This document shows, piece by piece, positions 21,535 through 52,499 of a DNA stretch of 61,974 bases (positions are counted from its first letter, which is position 1; every line of letters starts with the position of its first letter). Made by a program: the position numbers and the translations under genes. This stretch comes from an uncultured Candidatus Actinomarina sp. (GTDB lineage: Bacteria; Actinomycetota; Acidimicrobiia; Actinomarinales; Actinomarinaceae). The notes below the pieces were generated by a model, which was given only the letters and a program-made list of their open reading frames with translations, did not search any database and had not been told where the DNA came from. The DNA lies in assembly GCA_902510965.1 (NCBI GenBank), contig CABXDM010000003.1:1-61974 (forward strand), read 5' to 3'.

Positions 21535-21546
21535 GTGGGAGGTGTG

Positions 21547-22575
21547 ATGAGACTGACTGAGTATTCTCGTGGATCTGGTTGAGCTTGTAAACTATCACCT
21601 AGTGAGCTTGCACAAGTTTTGTCGCAATTTAAAAATCATAAAGCCTTATCTGCCAGCAGTGTATCTGTAGGTTTAAACAACCCCGATGACGCCGGAGTCG
21701 TAAGAACTAGTGGTGAAAATCTTATCCAATCTATAGATTTCTTTACTCCAATTTTAGATAATCCTTATGACTGGGGCAGAGTAGCAGCTGCAAATGCATT
21801 ATCCGACATCTATGCCATGGGTGGAGAGCCTCTGTCGGCTTTACAGTTAGTTTGTTGGCCTAGAGACCATATTAGTTTTGATATTCTAGGAGAGGTTATT
21901 AGAGGTGGATTAGATGTCATGGAGCAAGCTAAATGCTCGGTGATAGGAGGACACAGTATTGATGATAATGAACCTAAGTACGGCTTTTCTGTAACAGGAG
22001 TAGCAAAAGAAAGAGTCTTTCTAAACAATACAATTAAAGATGGCGATAAGTTATTTTTATCTAAACCACTGGGTACTGGTGTAATATCAACCGCAATTAA
22101 AAAAGATAAAGCTAGCTCTGAGATAATTAATAAAGCTACAACAGTAATGACGACTTTGAACAATTCTGCTGCTGACGTTGCCCATAAATATAAAGCAAAT
22201 GCAGTAACTGACATTACAGGATTTGGGTTATTCGGTCATTTAAGTGAGATGTTAAAAAATACAAATCTTGGAGCAAACATTTATAGTAAAAACATCCCTG
22301 CAATTGAAGGAGCTCAAGAACTAATTCTGAACGGCTTCTTTTCATCAGGAAGCCAAAGAAACCTTGACCATGTTAAAGAATTGATAATTGACAACGCATC
22401 AGACCAAAACCTTATAAAGCTTTGTTGTGATGCTCAGACAAGTGGGGGTCTACTTATTGCTGTACCAAAAGACCAAAATATTGACATTGTAGAGATTAAA
22501 GAAAGTATGGGTTTGGAACTTTGGGAAATAGGTGAAATAAATACTGACTATATCGAAAAGATAAATATTATTTAG
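21547..22575 (+). CDS. selD: Selenide, water dikinase, selenocysteine-containing (UGA at codon 12, 21580-21582)
   Basis: ATG 21547 reads MRLTEYSRGSG-U-ACKLSP, in frame with ORF 21619..22575 (DDAGV, DFFTP, AAANALSDIYAMGG, DITGFG, QTSGGLL). Aligns with SelD RLTQYSHGAGCGCK. SD-like AGGTGGGAGGT upstream. Confidence 0.93.
21583..21617 (+). promoter_or_regulatory. Candidate bacterial SECIS hairpin
   Basis: GCTTGT (21583-88) pairs with ACAAGT (21612-17), enclosing TCAC-CTA-GTGA, immediately 3' of the UGA. Confidence 0.55.
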
Positions 22576-22580
22576 TAATA

Positions 22581-23501
22581 ATGATTAAAAAATTAACAAA
22601 ATATTTTGCTTTCGCTACTTTGTTGAAAAATTTAATTGGCACTAAAAAAGCTCAGACCGAGGGCTTAACTCAAATTCACCCAACAAAAATACCTGGGAGA
22701 ACAGTTTTTGTGCGAGAAAAAGAATACTTTATTCGTGAATCTTACGTAGGTAACACAATCCCAATTATCTTTCTACACAGTTGGGGCTCTGACTCACTAG
22801 GAAGTTGGTTTAAAATTCTCCCTTTCTATGAAGAAAAAAATTCTTTTGTAACAATCGATATGAAAAATCACGGAAAATCCGACTCAAGTTGGAAGAGGTG
22901 GGATGTTGATGAAAACGCAGATGTAGTAATCAGCATATTAGATCAACTAGACATAGAGAAATGCAATATAGTTGGATGGTCAATGGGAAGTGCGGTAGGA
23001 CTTAGCATTTCAAGGAAGAAGAGAGAGCTTGTAAATAAAATGGTTCTCATCACACCATTTAGTTGGCTCGGAGGTGCTGTATATAAAGATAAACCCCTCT
23101 TTAAATTTTTTGTAGCAACGGTGAGAATCAGAGAGAGATTATTTCCAAATATGAATCCAAAATCTAAATATTCACATTTACGTAAAACTGGTGCATTAGG
23201 AAATGAATACACTGACTGGGCCTGGAATAATTTACATAAATCTAAAGATGACTTCATATATGAGGATGGTGGAAGATATGTTGTGCCATACGATGCAAGA
23301 CCCTGGTTAAAAGAAATTGATACAGAAACATTAGTCATCACGGGTGGAAAAGATAATTTAGTGCCTGAGGAGACTTCTCAAGAAGTTATAAAAGATCTAG
23401 CAAATGTAAATGAAATAATCTTTGATAATGCAGCTCACTCAATTCCATGGACACATGACGAACAATTATTAATTGAATTAGACTCTTTTTTTAAAGAATG
23501 A
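22581..23501 (+). CDS. Alpha/beta fold hydrolase
   Basis: FLHSWG, IDMKNHGKS, nucleophile GWSMG, GGKDNLV, AAHSIPW. Confidence 0.85.
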   Translation: MIKKLTKYFAFATLLKNLIGTKKAQTEGLTQIHPTKIPGRTVFVREKEYFIRESYVGNTIPIIFLHSWGSDSLGSWFKILPFYEEKNSFVTIDMKNHGKSDSSWKRWDVDENADVVISILDQLDIEKCNIVGWSMGSAVGLSISRKKRELVNKMVLITPFSWLGGAVYKDKPLFKFFVATVRIRERLFPNMNPKSKYSHLRKTGALGNEYTDWAWNNLHKSKDDFIYEDGGRYVVPYDARPWLKEIDTETLVITGGKDNLVPEETSQEVIKDLANVNEIIFDNAAHSIPWTHDEQLLIELDSFFKE

Positions 23502-28796: not shown

Positions 28797-28839
28797 AGCC
28801 CTTTTATAATATATCAAAACAACATGAAAGGTATTAAAA

Positions 28840-29205
28840 ATGAAAGTTGCTTACGTTCTTAATTCGCCAAATGCGGCTAATTACAAAGTTGGAGAGATGA
28901 TACTTCCACAACTAGAAGCTGATAACCATGGTGTTGAAGTAGTAGGTATTTTCTTTTTTGACGACAATACAATGTTGCTTCAGAAAGGAAATCCTAAAGG
29001 AGAAAGACTAGCAAAAGTTGCTTCCGAAAAAGGAATGCTATTGATGATGTGTGATCAATGTGCAAACCAACGAGGTCTTGCATCTAAAAATGCAGAGGGT
29101 GGTTATACCCCTGAAGGAACAGTTGAGGGAGTAGCCGCAGGTTGTTTCCCAGACTTGTACCAAGCCTTATCTGGCAACATGCCTGATCAAGTTATATCTT
29201 TATAA
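28840..29205 (+). CDS. DsrE-family sulfur/selenium-transfer protein (SaoD-like)
   Basis: ILPQLE..HGVEVVGIFFFDDN, MMCDQC, GCFPDLY..LSGNMPDQVISL; SD GAAAGG. Confidence 0.7.
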   Translation: MKVAYVLNSPNAANYKVGEMILPQLEADNHGVEVVGIFFFDDNTMLLQKGNPKGERLAKVASEKGMLLMMCDQCANQRGLASKNAEGGYTPEGTVEGVAAGCFPDLYQALSGNMPDQVISL

Positions 29206-45590: not shown

Positions 45591-48113
45591 TTATTTTTCA
45601 AGGATACTTTCATCCAAAGTACTATTTATATGTATCACTAGATTCATATTAGCTTCAAGCTTTTCTAATTTTTGCGCCATAAGTTTTTCTGCTGACGGTA
45701 AAGGATTTGCCATTATGAATGATCTTATATCATCTCCCAGCTCGCGGTCAAAAATCGCATCAAGACCAGAAAGTATTCTAGAGGCTGTCCATTCTGGCAT
45801 AACCCCTAATAAACCTGAATAATTATCTTTAATCTCATTCCAAGAGTCTTTCCCCGTAACTTTATTTGCAATCATTGATGCCAAGATATACGGACAATCG
45901 GCCCCTCTTATTGTGCCATCTAGCATTGACTGAACAATGATTTTGCCAGCATTAGGGTCTCTAACTACTCCTAGAATTGCCCTATACCTTCCTTCAATCT
46001 GTGGTGATCCTGCATTTAAGAATTTCTCCAAAAAATGTTCAATTTTTATTTCTGGATCTAGTGCAGAGATGTATAAGGTAGTGTTGTAGAGGCTGCCATC
46101 TTCAATACTTTCGATACTTCCATCTTTGAATTTACTGCTATAGAAATCTACAAAAGATTCATCATTTTCTATTGTTCCTATTAATTTATTAATAGTTGCC
46201 CTTAATTCTTTAATTTCCATAGAATCAGAATCTTTTATTTCTTTACCTAAATCATTTTTAATCGAATCAATAAGTTCATTGAAATAATTAACAAAGGATA
46301 CATTACTCTCATTTGGAAGGATTTTAGACAAAGAGGAAATTATACCAGCTACATAAGCCCAAATATTAGGGTCTCTTTCTGACTTATAAATTGGTAAAAA
46401 TTCTAAGAATTCATTAATTGAAAACTTTCCAATAGTTACTGATTTCCAAGTGTCTTCTAGAAGTCTATATTTTTCTAATGAATTAAGCTCATTAAAGCTT
46501 TCTTTTATCTTTGTAAATATTTCGGCATCATAAACAACATGATAAAAAGCCCAGCCACCATTATTGATAAAAGGTATTTCGCCCAATGCGTCTAATTCAA
46601 TTGTTTTTGAGTTTTGTACAAGTGTATGAACTTTTCCTGTATCTAAAAACCTGACATTAACAGGTATTTCCCAAAGTGAATCATCAGTTGAGCCATCAAT
46701 CAAAAATTTTGACTGTTCCAGAATAAATTTACCACCTGATTTACTTACTTTAATAATTGGAAATCCTGGTTGCTTAATCCAGGTTGGCAGCATTTTATTT
46801 AAAGGAAGTTTACTTGCTTCACTTAAAGATTCCCATAAATCCGAAGAATGAGTGTTTTCAAATTTATATTTGTTTAGATATTGCTGCACACCTTTTTGAA
46901 AAACCTCTTCTCCAACAAACATCTCAAACATCCTTAATACAGTCGATCCTTTTTCATATGTAAGAACATCAAACATTTCTTCAGCTTGTTCTGGAGTCTC
47001 TACTTCAAACTCAACAGGTCGAGAGTTTTTTAATGAGTCAACTCCAAATCCTGCACTTCTAGAAAGGTTCATTTCACTCCACTGATCGAATTCGGGATAG
47101 GTTCCATTAGCTGCAATTGCTTCCATCAAACTTGCAAAAGCTTCATTAAGCCATATACCATCCCACCATTTCATCGTAACTAAATCTCCAAACCACATAT
47201 GTGCAAGCTCGTGTGCAATAACACTTACGGACCTTGAAAGTTCCTGGCGAGTAGCCTTGGACTCATCAATAAGAAGCAAGCTTTCACGAAATGTTACCGC
47301 CCCAACATTTTCCATAGCTCCCATGGCAAAATCAGGTATAGCAATGAGATCAAGCTTTGAACCGGGATAAGGTATTTGGTAATAATTTTCAAAAAACTCT
47401 AAGATCTTCATACCAGCAGTACCCGCAAAACTAGTTTGATGAGAAAAACCAGGTCTGTGAATTATTCTTATTTGTGTATCACCAATGCTGCCTACCTCGG
47501 TAACCTCAAGTTCACCTATAACAAAAGCTACAAGATAGGTTGACATTTTCATTGAATCTACAAATAATGTTTCAACCCTACCATCCTCTAATTTATTTTC
47601 TCTGAGCACTTTTTCATTAGATACCCTCAGGTACTTTTCGTCTGATGTCAAGGATATGGAAAATACTGCTTTATATTCAGGCTCATCCCAGCAGGGAAAA
47701 GCATTTCTTGCTGAAGTCGGTTCAAACTGAGTTGTGGCAATCCATTTTTCATTATCATTTAAATCTAAAAACTGGCTTTTATAAAATCCTTTTAAATCAT
47801 TAGTAATGGTTGAATTGAATTCAAGCTGTAGTGAGTATTTCCCAACAGGTATATTTTCACTTGCAGTAAAAGATATTCTCTCTAGGTCTCTTAAGTATTC
47901 AAAAGTAAGATCAAATTCTTTTTCATCTTCATTAAAAAGTAATGCGCTGATTATTTCAATATCTATGGCGTTAACTTCAAAAGATTTAGTCTCTTTTATT
48001 ATCTCAAGTTCAACATCTTGAGAACCAGTATATTTAAAGTTGGATAAGTCGATGTCAAGTTTGACTTCGTAGCGTACAGGTTTTGCCACCTTTGGTAATA
48101 TTGCTTTATTCAT
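45591..48113 (-). CDS. pepN: M1 family aminopeptidase N
   Basis: TQFEPTSAR.AFPCWDEP, GAMEN, AHELAHMWFGDLVT..WW..IWLNEAFA, YEKG. Start set at ATG 48113. Confidence 0.95.
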   Translation of the reverse strand: MNKAILPKVAKPVRYEVKLDIDLSNFKYTGSQDVELEIIKETKSFEVNAIDIEIISALLFNEDEKEFDLTFEYLRDLERISFTASENIPVGKYSLQLEFNSTITNDLKGFYKSQFLDLNDNEKWIATTQFEPTSARNAFPCWDEPEYKAVFSISLTSDEKYLRVSNEKVLRENKLEDGRVETLFVDSMKMSTYLVAFVIGELEVTEVGSIGDTQIRIIHRPGFSHQTSFAGTAGMKILEFFENYYQIPYPGSKLDLIAIPDFAMGAMENVGAVTFRESLLLIDESKATRQELSRSVSVIAHELAHMWFGDLVTMKWWDGIWLNEAFASLMEAIAANGTYPEFDQWSEMNLSRSAGFGVDSLKNSRPVEFEVETPEQAEEMFDVLTYEKGSTVLRMFEMFVGEEVFQKGVQQYLNKYKFENTHSSDLWESLSEASKLPLNKMLPTWIKQPGFPIIKVSKSGGKFILEQSKFLIDGSTDDSLWEIPVNVRFLDTGKVHTLVQNSKTIELDALGEIPFINNGGWAFYHVVYDAEIFTKIKESFNELNSLEKYRLLEDTWKSVTIGKFSINEFLEFLPIYKSERDPNIWAYVAGIISSLSKILPNESNVSFVNYFNELIDSIKNDLGKEIKDSDSMEIKELRATINKLIGTIENDESFVDFYSSKFKDGSIESIEDGSLYNTTLYISALDPEIKIEHFLEKFLNAGSPQIEGRYRAILGVVRDPNAGKIIVQSMLDGTIRGADCPYILASMIANKVTGKDSWNEIKDNYSGLLGVMPEWTASRILSGLDAIFDRELGDDIRSFIMANPLPSAEKLMAQKLEKLEANMNLVIHINSTLDESILEK

Positions 48114-49497
48114 TCTCTCTCCAATCAATGTGTATGTATTCTTCCGAATCTAATAGCTGTACAGTATGGCTTCCAAAGTAATCTCTTTGTGCCTGAATTA
48201 AGTTAGAAGGATTACTGTCAGAGCTTAAGTTCAAATACCAACTTAGACTGGATGATAATACTGGTAGAGAAATATTATTTAATATTGAGCTGCTGACTAC
48301 ATCTTTGACAACACTTAAGTTATCTTTCAACAAATTATGTAAAGATTCTGATTTTAAGAAATCTTCAGCTGTTTTATTAATCTCCAACAACTCATCAAGC
48401 ATCTGAGATCTAATAATGCATCCTCCACTCCAGTTATTAAAAATATCCGAATAGTTAATAGATAAATCGTTAACTTCACTGTATTTATGAATTATTTTAA
48501 GCCCCTGAACCATTGCAGCTACTCTCCCAAAATAAAGAGCCTTGCTGAGGTTTGATTCATTAATAACTTTATTAAATGAATAGTCGACTTCTAACATGGT
48601 ATCTTCATTTTGATTAGCAGTTTTTTTCCAAGTGTCAGCAGCATTACTTTGGACTCTTGCATCGTAGGCAGCGTATATTGAGGGCGCTGAAATACCTAAT
48701 TCGAATGAAGTTTCTATGGTTAGTTTTCCGGTTCCCTTATTGTTAGCAAAAGGTTTTATCAAATCTAAAGTAAAGACTTCACCATCTTTCTTTCTTAGTA
48801 TTTCACTTGTGATTTCAATTAAATAGGATGATTGATTCATCCCTTTTAGGGATTCAAAAAACTCTGCAATCTCAATATTGCTGTATTCAGCGTACTTTAA
48901 GAGATAGTAAGCCTCTGTAATTAGCTGCATTTCTGCATATTCAATACCATTGTGTACCATTTTTATAAAATGACCAGATCCGTGGCCTTTGTAAAGCCCT
49001 ATGCAATCATTAGGTGCTTTTGCAGAAATTGCGGTCAGTAGTTCAACCAATTCATCACTGAGATTATTAGCTGAGCCTATCATGATAGCTGGTCCATGTC
49101 TGGCACCTTCTTCTCCACCAGAAACACCCATACCAACAAATTCGATGGACTTTGATGAAAGAATATTTCCATGGTTCTCACTTTCTTGATAAAACGAATT
49201 GCCACCATCAATAATTACATCGCCCTCATCTAGTAGATTTGAAAGTTGGTTTATGACGGAGTGAGTAGGCTGTCCAGAGGGAATCATTAATAAGATATTG
49301 CGGGGGCGTTCAAGATTATCTATGAGCTCTTCTAACTTTGTGAATCCAGCAAACATGCCACCAAATTCTTCACTAATTACATCTATTTTTTCCCGAGAGC
49401 CATTGAATGCTTTTACAAAGGTACCCTTTTCAGCAATATTAAGGGCAATATTTTTCCCCATAACACCAAGGCCAATCAAACCAATTTCACTTAACAT
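48106..49497 (-). CDS. gnd: 6-phosphogluconate dehydrogenase (decarboxylating)
   Basis: GLIGLGVMG, IIDGGNS, GVSGGEEGAR, KMVHNGIEY, NKGTG, QAQRDYFGSH. Confidence 0.95.
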   Translation of the reverse strand: MLSEIGLIGLGVMGKNIALNIAEKGTFVKAFNGSREKIDVISEEFGGMFAGFTKLEELIDNLERPRNILLMIPSGQPTHSVINQLSNLLDEGDVIIDGGNSFYQESENHGNILSSKSIEFVGMGVSGGEEGARHGPAIMIGSANNLSDELVELLTAISAKAPNDCIGLYKGHGSGHFIKMVHNGIEYAEMQLITEAYYLLKYAEYSNIEIAEFFESLKGMNQSSYLIEITSEILRKKDGEVFTLDLIKPFANNKGTGKLTIETSFELGISAPSIYAAYDARVQSNAADTWKKTANQNEDTMLEVDYSFNKVINESNLSKALYFGRVAAMVQGLKIIHKYSEVNDLSINYSDIFNNWSGGCIIRSQMLDELLEINKTAEDFLKSESLHNLLKDNLSVVKDVVSSSILNNISLPVLSSSLSWYLNLSSDSNPSNLIQAQRDYFGSHTVQLLDSEEYIHIDWRENE

Positions 49498-50818
49498 TTT
49501 TGAATTCCTTCATAAGTTTCAAATCTAATAATTTGTGTATTAATTTACTTCTCATTCTTATTTCTAATAGTAATAAATCAGAACTATTTGTAACTTCTAA
49601 AATTTCACCAAATCTATTAACTTTTTCTAAATCTTTTGGCTCCACCAAAAACCAATCTTGTTGAACCTCTCCATATATTTCGCTCGAAATTCTTTCTACA
49701 AGTTCTTCAATTCCAGTATTTTTCAGAGATGAGATAAAAAGAGCCTGAGGATACCTCTCAGTTAGGTCATTTAACGAAGCTCTGTCAAGCCTGTCTATTT
49801 TATTGAATACCATTATTTCATTTGCACTAACATTTATTTGTTCAAGAATATTTCTAACAGTACCTATGTGCATCTGAGGTATAGCAGTTGCTGCATCAAC
49901 TACATGTATTAATAGGTCTGCACTAGTTGCTACTAAAAGGGTAGATTTAAAAGACTCTATTAAGGTTGTTGGAAGATTTTGTATAAAACCAACGGTATCT
50001 GACAAAATTAACGGTTCTTGTACATTTTTTATTGGAAGCTCTCTTTGCAGTGAATCCACAGTAGCAAAAAGTTCATCTGCTATGTAAGCCTCTGAATTTG
50101 TTAACGATCTTAATAATGTAGATTTACCGGCGTTGGTGTATCCAACGATTGAGACTAAAGGTGTATTATTTTTTTCTCTAGAACTAGCCTGAAGAACTCT
50201 TTGTTTTTCAATTTTTCTTAATTCTTTACGAAGCTTATTTATACGATTATCAATTAACCTGCTGTCTGTTTCTAGCTTGGCCTCACCTGGCCCCCTAGTG
50301 CCAATACCGCCACCCTGTTGATTTAATGTTTTACCTAATCCTGCAAGTCTAGGTTTTAGGTACACAGACATTGCAAGTTCTACTTGGAGGTTTGCTTCTT
50401 TAGACTGTGCATGTAAAGCAAAAATATCAAGAATTAAACCAGTTCTATCTACTACGTCACATTGAAATATTGCTCGCAACTCTTTTTGCTGATTGGGGCT
50501 AAGTTCGCAATCAAAAACTACCACATCAATATCATTGGCCTTTGAAAGTTCTTCTAGTTCATTAATAGAGCCCTTACCAATGAATGTCTTTGGATCAATT
50601 CGATCTATTCTTTTTGTTTGAATTATTGTTGGATTAGATCCAGCAGTTTTTACAAGACTTGTTAACTCTTTTAAAGACTCTTCACGGTCAGCTCTAGTTT
50701 GATTTTTAAGAATTATTCCAACAAGTAAGGCTTTTTGTACTGTTACAAAAATATCTTTATCAGATACTGTTAATAAGCGTCTATCAGTTTGATTTGGATT
50801 GTTATTTCTTTGATTCAA
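49487..50818 (-). CDS. hflX: Ribosome-splitting GTPase HflX
   Basis: VVDRTGLILDIFA, GGIGTRGPGE, GYTNAGKS, LFATVD, DTVGF, NKID. TTG start approximate. Confidence 0.95.
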   Translation of the reverse strand: MNQRNNNPNQTDRRLLTVSDKDIFVTVQKALLVGIILKNQTRADREESLKELTSLVKTAGSNPTIIQTKRIDRIDPKTFIGKGSINELEELSKANDIDVVVFDCELSPNQQKELRAIFQCDVVDRTGLILDIFALHAQSKEANLQVELAMSVYLKPRLAGLGKTLNQQGGGIGTRGPGEAKLETDSRLIDNRINKLRKELRKIEKQRVLQASSREKNNTPLVSIVGYTNAGKSTLLRSLTNSEAYIADELFATVDSLQRELPIKNVQEPLILSDTVGFIQNLPTTLIESFKSTLLVATSADLLIHVVDAATAIPQMHIGTVRNILEQINVSANEIMVFNKIDRLDRASLNDLTERYPQALFISSLKNTGIEELVERISSEIYGEVQQDWFLVEPKDLEKVNRFGEILEVTNSSDLLLLEIRMRSKLIHKLLDLKLMKEFKNVK

Positions 50819-50871: not shown

Positions 50872-50966
50872 TGGCGGAGGTGGACGGGAATCGAACCCGC
50901 CAAAGACTTTTACACCTTTCACCAGTTTTGAAGACCGGGGAGCCCACCAGGCGCTCATTCACCTCC
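50872..50966 (-). tRNA. selC: tRNA-Sec (anticodon TCA)
   Basis: 95 nt: GGAGGTGA..., 6-bp D stem with TGGT loop, CCGGT-CTTCAAA-ACTGG anticodon arm, long variable arm, 13-bp acceptor+T helix, G discriminator, encoded CCA. Confidence 0.95.
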
Positions 50967-51018: not shown

Positions 51019-51615
51019 ATGGAAAATTTTTCAACTTTATTCATGAGGCTAAAAAAGGAAAGAGGACTGTCTAATAAGCAGATAGCCTCTTTTACAGGTG
51101 CAAATCTTAAAGAGGTAAAAAAATGGGATGCAGGAGTTAGTTTTCCAACTGATAAGAAAATTATAGTCGCCCTTGAGGGACTTCTTGGCAGAGAAGTTAT
51201 GGATACACTTGAACATCTCACTATTAACAATCAGAGAACTATAAACCCAGAAAATATTGAAGATTCACTTTTTACAATTGATAGAGATAAAAATGTCGAG
51301 CTAAAATCAGGCATTTTTAATAAGTTTAAATCAGAGAAACAAAAAATTAAGGATGTTCCACAACCCGAGCTATTTACCTATGAAAATATTAGTGATACAC
51401 AAGACCTAGAAGACTTCGATATGCAAAACCAAATAAGTAACTTTGAAACTGCTTTAGATGAAAAACCATATATTGCTGATTCAAAACAATTGGGGTTTTA
51501 TCTTTCGAGAAATATTAAAACATCACTAAGCCTTCTTTTTATCTTGATATTAATCACAAGAGGATTTCAATTATTTTTAGACTCTATAAAAATTATTATT
51601 GAAAATTTATTGTGA
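51019..51615 (+). CDS. XRE-like helix-turn-helix protein with C-terminal membrane segment
   Basis: LKKERGLSNKQIASFTGANLKEVKKWDAGVSFP, acidic linker, hydrophobic tail; GTGA-coupled to ctaA. Confidence 0.65.
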   Translation: MENFSTLFMRLKKERGLSNKQIASFTGANLKEVKKWDAGVSFPTDKKIIVALEGLLGREVMDTLEHLTINNQRTINPENIEDSLFTIDRDKNVELKSGIFNKFKSEKQKIKDVPQPELFTYENISDTQDLEDFDMQNQISNFETALDEKPYIADSKQLGFYLSRNIKTSLSLLFILILITRGFQLFLDSIKIIIENLL

Positions 51616-52499
51616 CACTTTTTAATTTATCTAAGACAGGTTTGATCCTCTCAATTTTATCTATTATTGCTGGTGCTGTAGTTAGGGCAACCGGTTCAGG
51701 AAATGGATGTGGCTCTTCTTGGCCAAGCTGTAATGGACAAGTTATACCATCTCTAAATTCTGCTTCCGAACAGATTGAATTTTCGCATAGATCTATCAGC
51801 GGGTTACTACTTATCGTAACATTAGTTATTTTTATAAAATCTTTTCATCCCTCAGTTCCAAATATTCAAAAAAAAGTTATTAAATACCTGACTTTTTTTG
51901 TACTTTTCGAGGCATTGATAGGAGCGGTAATAGTTTTATATGAATGGGTTGGAATGAATAGTTCTCTTCCTAGAGTAGCAGCCGTCCCACTTCATTTAGT
52001 TAACACTTTTGGGCTGCTTGCTATGTACACTGTAATATTTAAATTAACCAGAAATCCAGAAATTGATATAAATAACCTCATAGACCGAAATTTTAAAATA
52101 ATTACACTCCTGTTTATCCTGACCGGAGCAACAGGATCAATTGCGGCACTTGCTGATGTTTTGTTTCCAAGTGAGTCTTTTATAGCTGGTTTAGTTGAAG
52201 ACTTTGATAGCACCTCAGAATTACTTACAAGGCTAAGAATCTTGCACCCAATTGCTTCTACAATTCTTTCTGTTGAACTATTTAGGGAGTCAAGAAGACT
52301 AAAAAAAAGCTTTGAATTAATAACATTTCAAATAGATACACTCGTTATTGTCGGAGTAACACTTGGTGTCCTAAATGTTCTTATAAATATAAATATTTTC
52401 CTTAGTGTTGTGCATTTATTGGTTGCAGATTTACTTTGGATTACATATATATACATAAGTATGGAGAAAAACTCTAAAAAAATTCTCAAAAACAAATAA
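51612..52499 (+). CDS. ctaA: Heme A synthase (COX15/CtaA)
   Basis: TGSGNGCGSSWPSCNG, IEFSHR, EALIGA, HLVNT, HP, HLLVA. Confidence 0.85.
   Translation: MTLFNLSKTGLILSILSIIAGAVVRATGSGNGCGSSWPSCNGQVIPSLNSASEQIEFSHRSISGLLLIVTLVIFIKSFHPSVPNIQKKVIKYLTFFVLFEALIGAVIVLYEWVGMNSSLPRVAAVPLHLVNTFGLLAMYTVIFKLTRNPEIDINNLIDRNFKIITLLFILTGATGSIAALADVLFPSESFIAGLVEDFDSTSELLTRLRILHPIASTILSVELFRESRRLKKSFELITFQIDTLVIVGVTLGVLNVLININIFLSVVHLLVADLLWITYIYISMEKNSKKILKNK

Follow-up and report, generated by a model that had tools for sequence, protein, structure and literature searches.

The stretch of DNA analysed here, a window of 61,974 nt, carries a selC gene for tRNA-Sec at 50872..50966 (-), with a UCA anticodon and a 3' end reading ...CCUCC-G-CCA, so that the G73 discriminator and the CCA (50874-50872) are both encoded. 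ARAGORN, which reported two tRNAs within the window, called a tRNA-SeC with anticodon tca at position 36 at 50872-50966 (-), and the Rfam model RF01852 matched 50876-50966(-) over its full length (model positions 1-91 of 91), with 75.3 bits against a gathering threshold of 47 and an E value of 1.2e-13, the CUUCAAA loop aligning to the model. This is the single above-cut-off RF01852 match in the whole assembly, a Candidatus Actinomarina MAG of 810 kb in 37 contigs that is 67% complete and belongs to the order Actinomarinales in the class Acidimicrobiia. Among 24 congeners, 20 have a tRNA-Sec scoring above 70 bits with the same model. We analysed covariation in a gap-free alignment of 11 distinct tRNA-Sec, 10 of them Actinomarina sequences and the eleventh that of a class relative. 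The 8/5-type cloverleaf places 96.4% of cells in standard pairs, versus 42-53% when partners are slid by 1-3 columns, nine of the 30 pairs show a compensatory change, and none of 500 shuffles reaches the covariation score. On the combined strength of the ARAGORN call, the full-length Rfam match above gathering and the covariation among relatives, this is, as judged from sequence, a genuine tRNA-Sec gene, as the earlier note had proposed, and the anticodon, long variable arm and encoded CCA described there are all present.

In its overall design this tRNA resembles bacterial selC (RF01852; E. coli type), with which it shares the UCA anticodon, G73, a long variable arm with a 6-bp stem (four pairs covarying here), an extended D stem with a 4-nt loop and the full-length covariance-model match, and it also has the 5-bp T stem opening with G.U seen in E. 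coli. The D stem, of 6 bp with two covarying pairs, is closed by a UGGU loop; both the T stem and the anticodon stem are supported by the alignment. The Actinomarina tRNA differs from the bacterial type in a bulged G in the D stem, in a C.U mismatch where the anticodon stem would have its outermost (sixth) pair and in the acceptor, where seven Watson-Crick pairs are followed at position 8:84 by A.C, unpaired in 11/11 distinct sequences (U.C in the class relative). The 13-bp acceptor plus T helix previously described for this gene is thus correct as 8+5 geometry but not as 13 standard pairs, there being 12 and one conserved mismatch. The other difference is at the 3' end, where most congeners have CTA for CCA: in a comparison with the congener selC loci L016-L036, an encoded CCA is confined to this genome and its nearest relative, and most of the others read GCTA, so that in those genomes CCA must be added post-transcriptionally. 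Apparent second selC copies in congeners were rejected, since these RF01852 matches of 48-49 bits, barely above the gathering threshold, are tRNA-Ser(GCU). Such tRNA-Ser(GCU) genes occur at 48-49 bits in many Actinomarina genomes (for example at ~1497-1588 in loci L043 and L044, from congeners G019 and G003), and annotation by Rfam only would call false second selC genes in the genus.

The surroundings of selC are those reported before, both positions and Pfam matches agreeing that it lies 53 bp upstream of hflX-gnd-pepN and divergent from an HTH-ctaA pair. On the same strand, hflX (49487-50818 (-); Pfam GTP-bdg_N/M and MMR_HSR1) starts 53 nt past the tRNA 3' end and is followed by gnd (48106-49497) and pepN (45591-48128). 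On the other side, the divergent pair consists of an ORF of 198 aa at 51019-51615 (+), with a weak match to an RstR-type HTH (phage-repressor type), and ctaA at 51612-52499 (+) (PF02628 COX15-CtaA). The adjacency of selC and hflX is found in 20 congeners and the HTH-ctaA pair upstream of selC in 18-19, the order ctaA-HTH-selC-hflX being kept in ~20. Of these, hflX is a conserved neighbour outside the Sec system, and the HTH ORF and ctaA are context only. About half of the congeners carry, between selC and hflX, a conserved ORF of ~110 aa (MAEEKSLLDEV...FKVSPGWRVGHLKEE...; loci L020, L023, L025-L028 and L032-L034), which is absent from this genome's clade. A sequence scan around selC found no sigma-70-like promoter and no intrinsic terminator. 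Elsewhere in the window, at 28840-29205 (+), lies a stand-alone DsrE/DsrF-like protein of 121 aa (PF02635, 24.9 bits), which none of our results connects with Sec use.

The second Sec gene of the window is selD, for a selenophosphate synthetase with Sec, which lies 29 kb from selC at 21535..22575 (+) and matches TIGR00476 with 370.8 bits (cut-off 125). The frame in the ORF list opens at GTG 21535, but the likely start is ATG 21547, and an in-frame TGA at 21580-21582 falls in the active-site motif GSGUACK. Of 24 congeners, 23 have selD, each with exactly one TGA, the same as here, and among class relatives forms with and without the TGA both exist. Behind the UGA are two short hairpins, at 21592-21606 and 21608-21627 (+), which covariation marks as a candidate SECIS: over 14 distinct sequences 89.6% of cells are paired, with five compensatory pairs and a score reached by 0/500 shuffles. 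The second of these, with an apical GUU loop, is the best conserved of the post-UGA hairpins and persists in class relatives with a loop of GUC or GUU. The profile match, the single TGA in 23/24 congeners and the covarying hairpins together bear out the recoding of this UGA suggested earlier, whereas the single helix then drawn at 21583-21617 has to be replaced by the hairpin at 21608-21627, preceded by that at 21592-21606. No selenouridine synthase (TIGR03167) was found in 31 genus genomes, from which it follows that SelD serves the Sec pathway.

The two remaining genes of the pathway have to be sought in relatives, because neither selA (TIGR00474) nor selB (TIGR00475) rises above noise in this 810-kb, 67%-complete assembly. 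Among congeners, selA is above the TIGR00474 cut-off in 19 of 24, and in the selA-containing ones (4 of 6 searched) a selB ORF of 560-565 aa lies directly beside it. In these four genomes selB scores 189-213 bits over TIGR00475 model positions 2-572, against a curated cut-off of 242. In congener G008 the protein combines GTP_EFTU with SelB-wing_3, the domain that binds SECIS (PF09107, 48 bits), and the gene beside it encodes SelA (PF03841, 320 bits). A genus-wide absence of selB, seen at a strict threshold of E<=1e-65 set against EF-Tu, proved an artefact, the relaxed search giving selB beside selA. In tblastn searches with the neighbourhoods of two congeners, none of the ~15 genes of the 14-kb selAB neighbourhood was matched in our assembly; the lack of selA and selB here is therefore most probably a gap in the assembly, the whole neighbourhood being unassembled, and does not count as evidence of loss. 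Two other congeners, G009 (one contig, 1.01 Mb) and G010 (five contigs), are likewise without selA and selB. The genes flanking selAB are also all missing from G009, which fits the boundary of a hypervariable region failing to assemble or bin: selA has been reported to sit at the boundary of such a region in Actinomarina (10.64898/2026.04.03.716425), and hypervariable regions presumably assemble poorly in MAGs. The earlier note had held that a genome without selA/selB and with no selenoprotein beyond SelD would speak against the system; the assembly does lack selA and selB, but with the flanking genes missing and the MAG 67% complete this is uninformative, and it is from the congeners that we infer selAB to be present in this strain too. 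The note's further point that selC is not clustered with selA, selB or selD is upheld, selD being 29 kb off and selA and selB, in congeners, lying side by side at another place in the genome.

Which proteins would use this machinery is answered in part by the assembly itself. UGA is an ordinary stop here, ending 131 of 564 long ORFs, and recoding is therefore local to particular genes. We searched every contig for TGA codons lying in frame between two coding stretches, set aside those overlapped by a better ORF in a different frame, and complemented this with a gap-based scan. The whole-assembly scan recovers selD and two further genes, both on other contigs. The masked and gap-based scans agree that the 61,974-nt window holds no other credible in-frame-UGA gene besides selD, so that the earlier expectation of clients outside the window was correct. 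The first of these clients is an AhpD-like protein (contig C9, 22743-23303 (-)) with a TGA at 23058 in the context CEYU-VRSH. It matches TIGR01926 ('peroxidase-related enzyme') with 126.6 bits (cut-off 81.8) across the TGA, and Pfam CMD too. All 12 Actinomarina loci found have ECEY-TGA and the four distant homologues, with Thermoplasmata and Woeseiaceae among their sources, have ECEYC, which reads as a classic Sec/Cys pair. The second client is a predicted membrane-anchored thioredoxin-like protein (contig C4, 28559-29032) with a TGA at 28805 in the motif YULGC (UxxC), a hydrophobic N-terminal region and a PF00085 domain spanning the TGA. Of 61 genus genomes, 52 have an orthologue, which in every case contains a single TGA, and it is this conservation at 47-99% identity, together with the UxxC motif, that points to Sec, no Cys form being found among 50 database matches. 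Its database copies either end at ...YSDY or run to 157 aa with a Trp in place of Sec, the latter evidently predicted under code 4 (TGA=Trp) from short contigs of metagenomes. Head-to-head with this gene, ~33 nt apart, is an ORF of 138 aa (C4, 28109-28525 (-)) that by eye resembles a Fur-family (PerR/Zur-like) regulator, the next genes resembling an ECF/cobalt-type transporter.

Several other read-through frames were discarded: one at C1 29947-30933 overlaps a tRNA, one runs into the likely start of ribosomal protein L28, a C-terminal 'NC-U-G' candidate of G009 was dropped, and the remainder are normal stop codons, frames derived from tRNA genes or meaningless upstream sequence. Neither of two simpler filters was adequate. 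With codon-usage log-odds alone, antisense shadow frames outranked real candidates and selD was missed, and tblastn of G009 UGA read-through peptides against the present genome (G000) returned 950 spanning matches, shadow frames being conserved between congeners.

The same scan of the 1.01-Mb contig of G009 added two families. One is a SelW-like/Rdx protein of 78 aa with a CVVU motif (CxxU; PF10262, 57 bits), found in 56/61 genus genomes with one TGA in every copy; the other is a Prx/TlpA-like, lipoprotein-like protein with the motif WADYUSIC (PF00578, 26.4 bits), found in 53/61 with one TGA in 52. In our assembly the flanks of both loci are missing or at the very end of contig C12, and both genes are therefore probably present in this strain but unassembled. 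The suggestion of unannotated or new client families is accordingly right in its first part, the proteins being truncated or mistranslated in databases, and wrong in its second, since all the families are known from ocean metagenomes (PMC2398784).

Like selD, the client genes carry a hairpin behind the UGA. That of the AhpD-like gene, UCUCC-GGUC-GGAGA, starts 20 nt past the UGA and hardly varies: one of its five third codon positions is variable, as against 67 of 75 outside (Fisher p=0.0014). Its counterpart in the thioredoxin-like gene, AAUUCAU-AGUUA-AUGAAUU, starts 19 nt after the UGA, the corresponding counts being 2/6 and 68/74 (p=0.0017), and one of its pairs appears among relatives as U-A, U.G and C-G. 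Synonymous change is scarce within both hairpins. Folding of the SelW-like and Prx-like genes of G009 gives hairpins whose loop, AGUUA, is that of the thioredoxin-like gene.

In the bacterial Sec pathway, tRNA-Sec is serylated by SerRS and converted by SelA with selenophosphate from SelD, and SelB brings the resulting Sec-tRNA(Sec) to an in-frame UGA with a short hairpin (SECIS) behind it. We infer that the Actinomarina system follows the same steps. SerRS would charge the selC product with serine, SelA would turn the charged tRNA into Sec-tRNA(Sec) with selenophosphate supplied by SelD, which here would be a selenoprotein itself, and SelB would deliver it to UGA codons trailed by a short hairpin. 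In this assembly selC would serve at least three genes, selD, the AhpD-like gene (CEYU) and the thioredoxin-like gene (YULGC), and almost certainly also those for the SelW-like/Rdx and Prx/TlpA-like proteins, both in unassembled parts. That selC is functional and serves these genes is the reading we favour on the sequence evidence, with a probability of about 94%. The working, dispersed Sec system envisaged in the earlier note agrees with the layout found, with selC and selD 29 kb apart, the selAB of congeners elsewhere and two selenoprotein genes on other contigs.

Three other explanations were weighed. That selC is a relic, left with its UGA genes as decaying remnants in a strain that has lost selA and selB, would account for the lack of either gene above noise in the 810-kb assembly and for the same lack in G009 and G010. 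We consider it very unlikely, because the ~15 genes flanking selAB are missing with them here and in G009, as expected of a region merely unassembled, the three UGA genes of this assembly are intact on either side of the TGA, and their hairpins are under nucleotide-level constraint. A related proposal is that the gene encodes a tRNA-Sec-like tRNA inserting Cys or Ser at UGA independently of selenium (an allo-tRNA or recoded selC), which could explain two mild departures from the textbook 8/5 fold, the A.C at the eighth position of the acceptor and the G bulging from the D stem. G73 is a SerRS-type identity element, whereas Cys-type tRNAs have U73. Unlike Cys-inserting tRNA-Sec-like and allo-tRNAs, the selC product has G73 rather than U73, and selA, selB and a selD with Sec all occur in its lineage. 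Given also the 75-bit full-length match to RF01852 and UGA positions that coincide with redox-active Cys positions of known Sec/Cys families, selenium-independent insertion seems extremely improbable.

Finally, the real point of interest could be a genomic island integrated at the tRNA gene, as the E. coli selC is the integration site of a genomic island. The neighbouring 198-aa ORF, with its weak phage-repressor-type HTH match, would suit such an origin, and selC has been placed inside a hypervariable region in 32/84 Actinomarina genomes (10.64898/2026.04.03.716425). Yet the order ctaA-HTH-selC-hflX is constant in ~20 congeners, an island would not fit into the 53 nt between selC and hflX, relatives lack a direct repeat of tRNA origin downstream of selC, and there is neither an integrase nor an att repeat beside selC within the window, which together leave an island scarcely credible. 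A functional tRNA-Sec gene in a dispersed system thus remains our preferred reading.

There is nothing unusual about the selC gene as such, and the use of Sec by Actinomarina has already been reported in a preprint of April 2026 (bioRxiv 10.64898/2026.04.03.716425), according to which each of the 84 complete genomes of the genus has selC, selA, selD and a divergent selB below the KofamScan threshold, and no selenouridine synthase is present. It predicted ~5 selenoproteins per genome by deep-Sep, mostly 'uncharacterized' and including a dominant 78-aa family, and obtained no SECIS matches with Rfam models. Our findings agree with this system in the genus, in selC, selA, a Sec-containing selD and a sub-threshold selB, in the lack of a selenouridine synthase and in the figure of ~5 selenoproteins. 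What we add is the assignment of the clients as SelW-like/Rdx (PF10262), AhpD-like (TIGR01926), membrane thioredoxin-like and Prx/TlpA-like proteins, and the lineage hairpins after the UGA. The 78-aa SelW-like protein may be the 78-aa family of the preprint, going only by length and prevalence. Where the preprint has selC in a hypervariable region in 32 of 84 genomes, we find its neighbourhood conserved in the GTDB representatives examined. The families are also those of an older metagenomic survey (GOS; Zhang & Gladyshev 2008, PMC2398784), in which SelW-like, SelD, Trx-like, AhpD-like 1 and Prx-like 1 were the most abundant marine selenoprotein families. The likeness extends to CxxU in the SelW-like and AhpD-like proteins, to UxxC in the Trx-like and Prx-like proteins and to the same Pfam/COG families, but that survey assigned no organism, unlike the Actinomarina genes described here. 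A wider reading, tentative and in our judgement somewhat short of an even chance, is that Actinomarina is an unrecognised source of these five abundant ocean families, that its below-threshold SelB reads a minimal lineage-specific SECIS (a 5-7-bp stem under an AGUUA-type loop, which in the AhpD-like gene is replaced by GGUC), and that the YULGC thioredoxin-like protein is a lineage-restricted subfamily.

Since tRNA-Sec genes are textbook material, the finding carries little weight as a discovery and more for annotation. Standard gene callers truncate or mistranslate four to five redox proteins in Actinomarina, an abundant ocean lineage with genomes of ~1 Mb, and curated profiles miss its SelB. 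What remains of interest is the pairing of a possibly lineage-specific minimal SECIS with a divergent SelB, besides a thioredoxin-like selenoprotein whose database copies are all broken. For the biology of the organism, the clients that can now be named, namely an AhpD-like protein, two thioredoxin-fold extracytoplasmic or membrane proteins, a SelW-like protein and SelD itself, support one reading, that the cell bears the cost of the Sec machinery for the sake of thiol-based redox chemistry and protection from peroxides in sunlit surface water.
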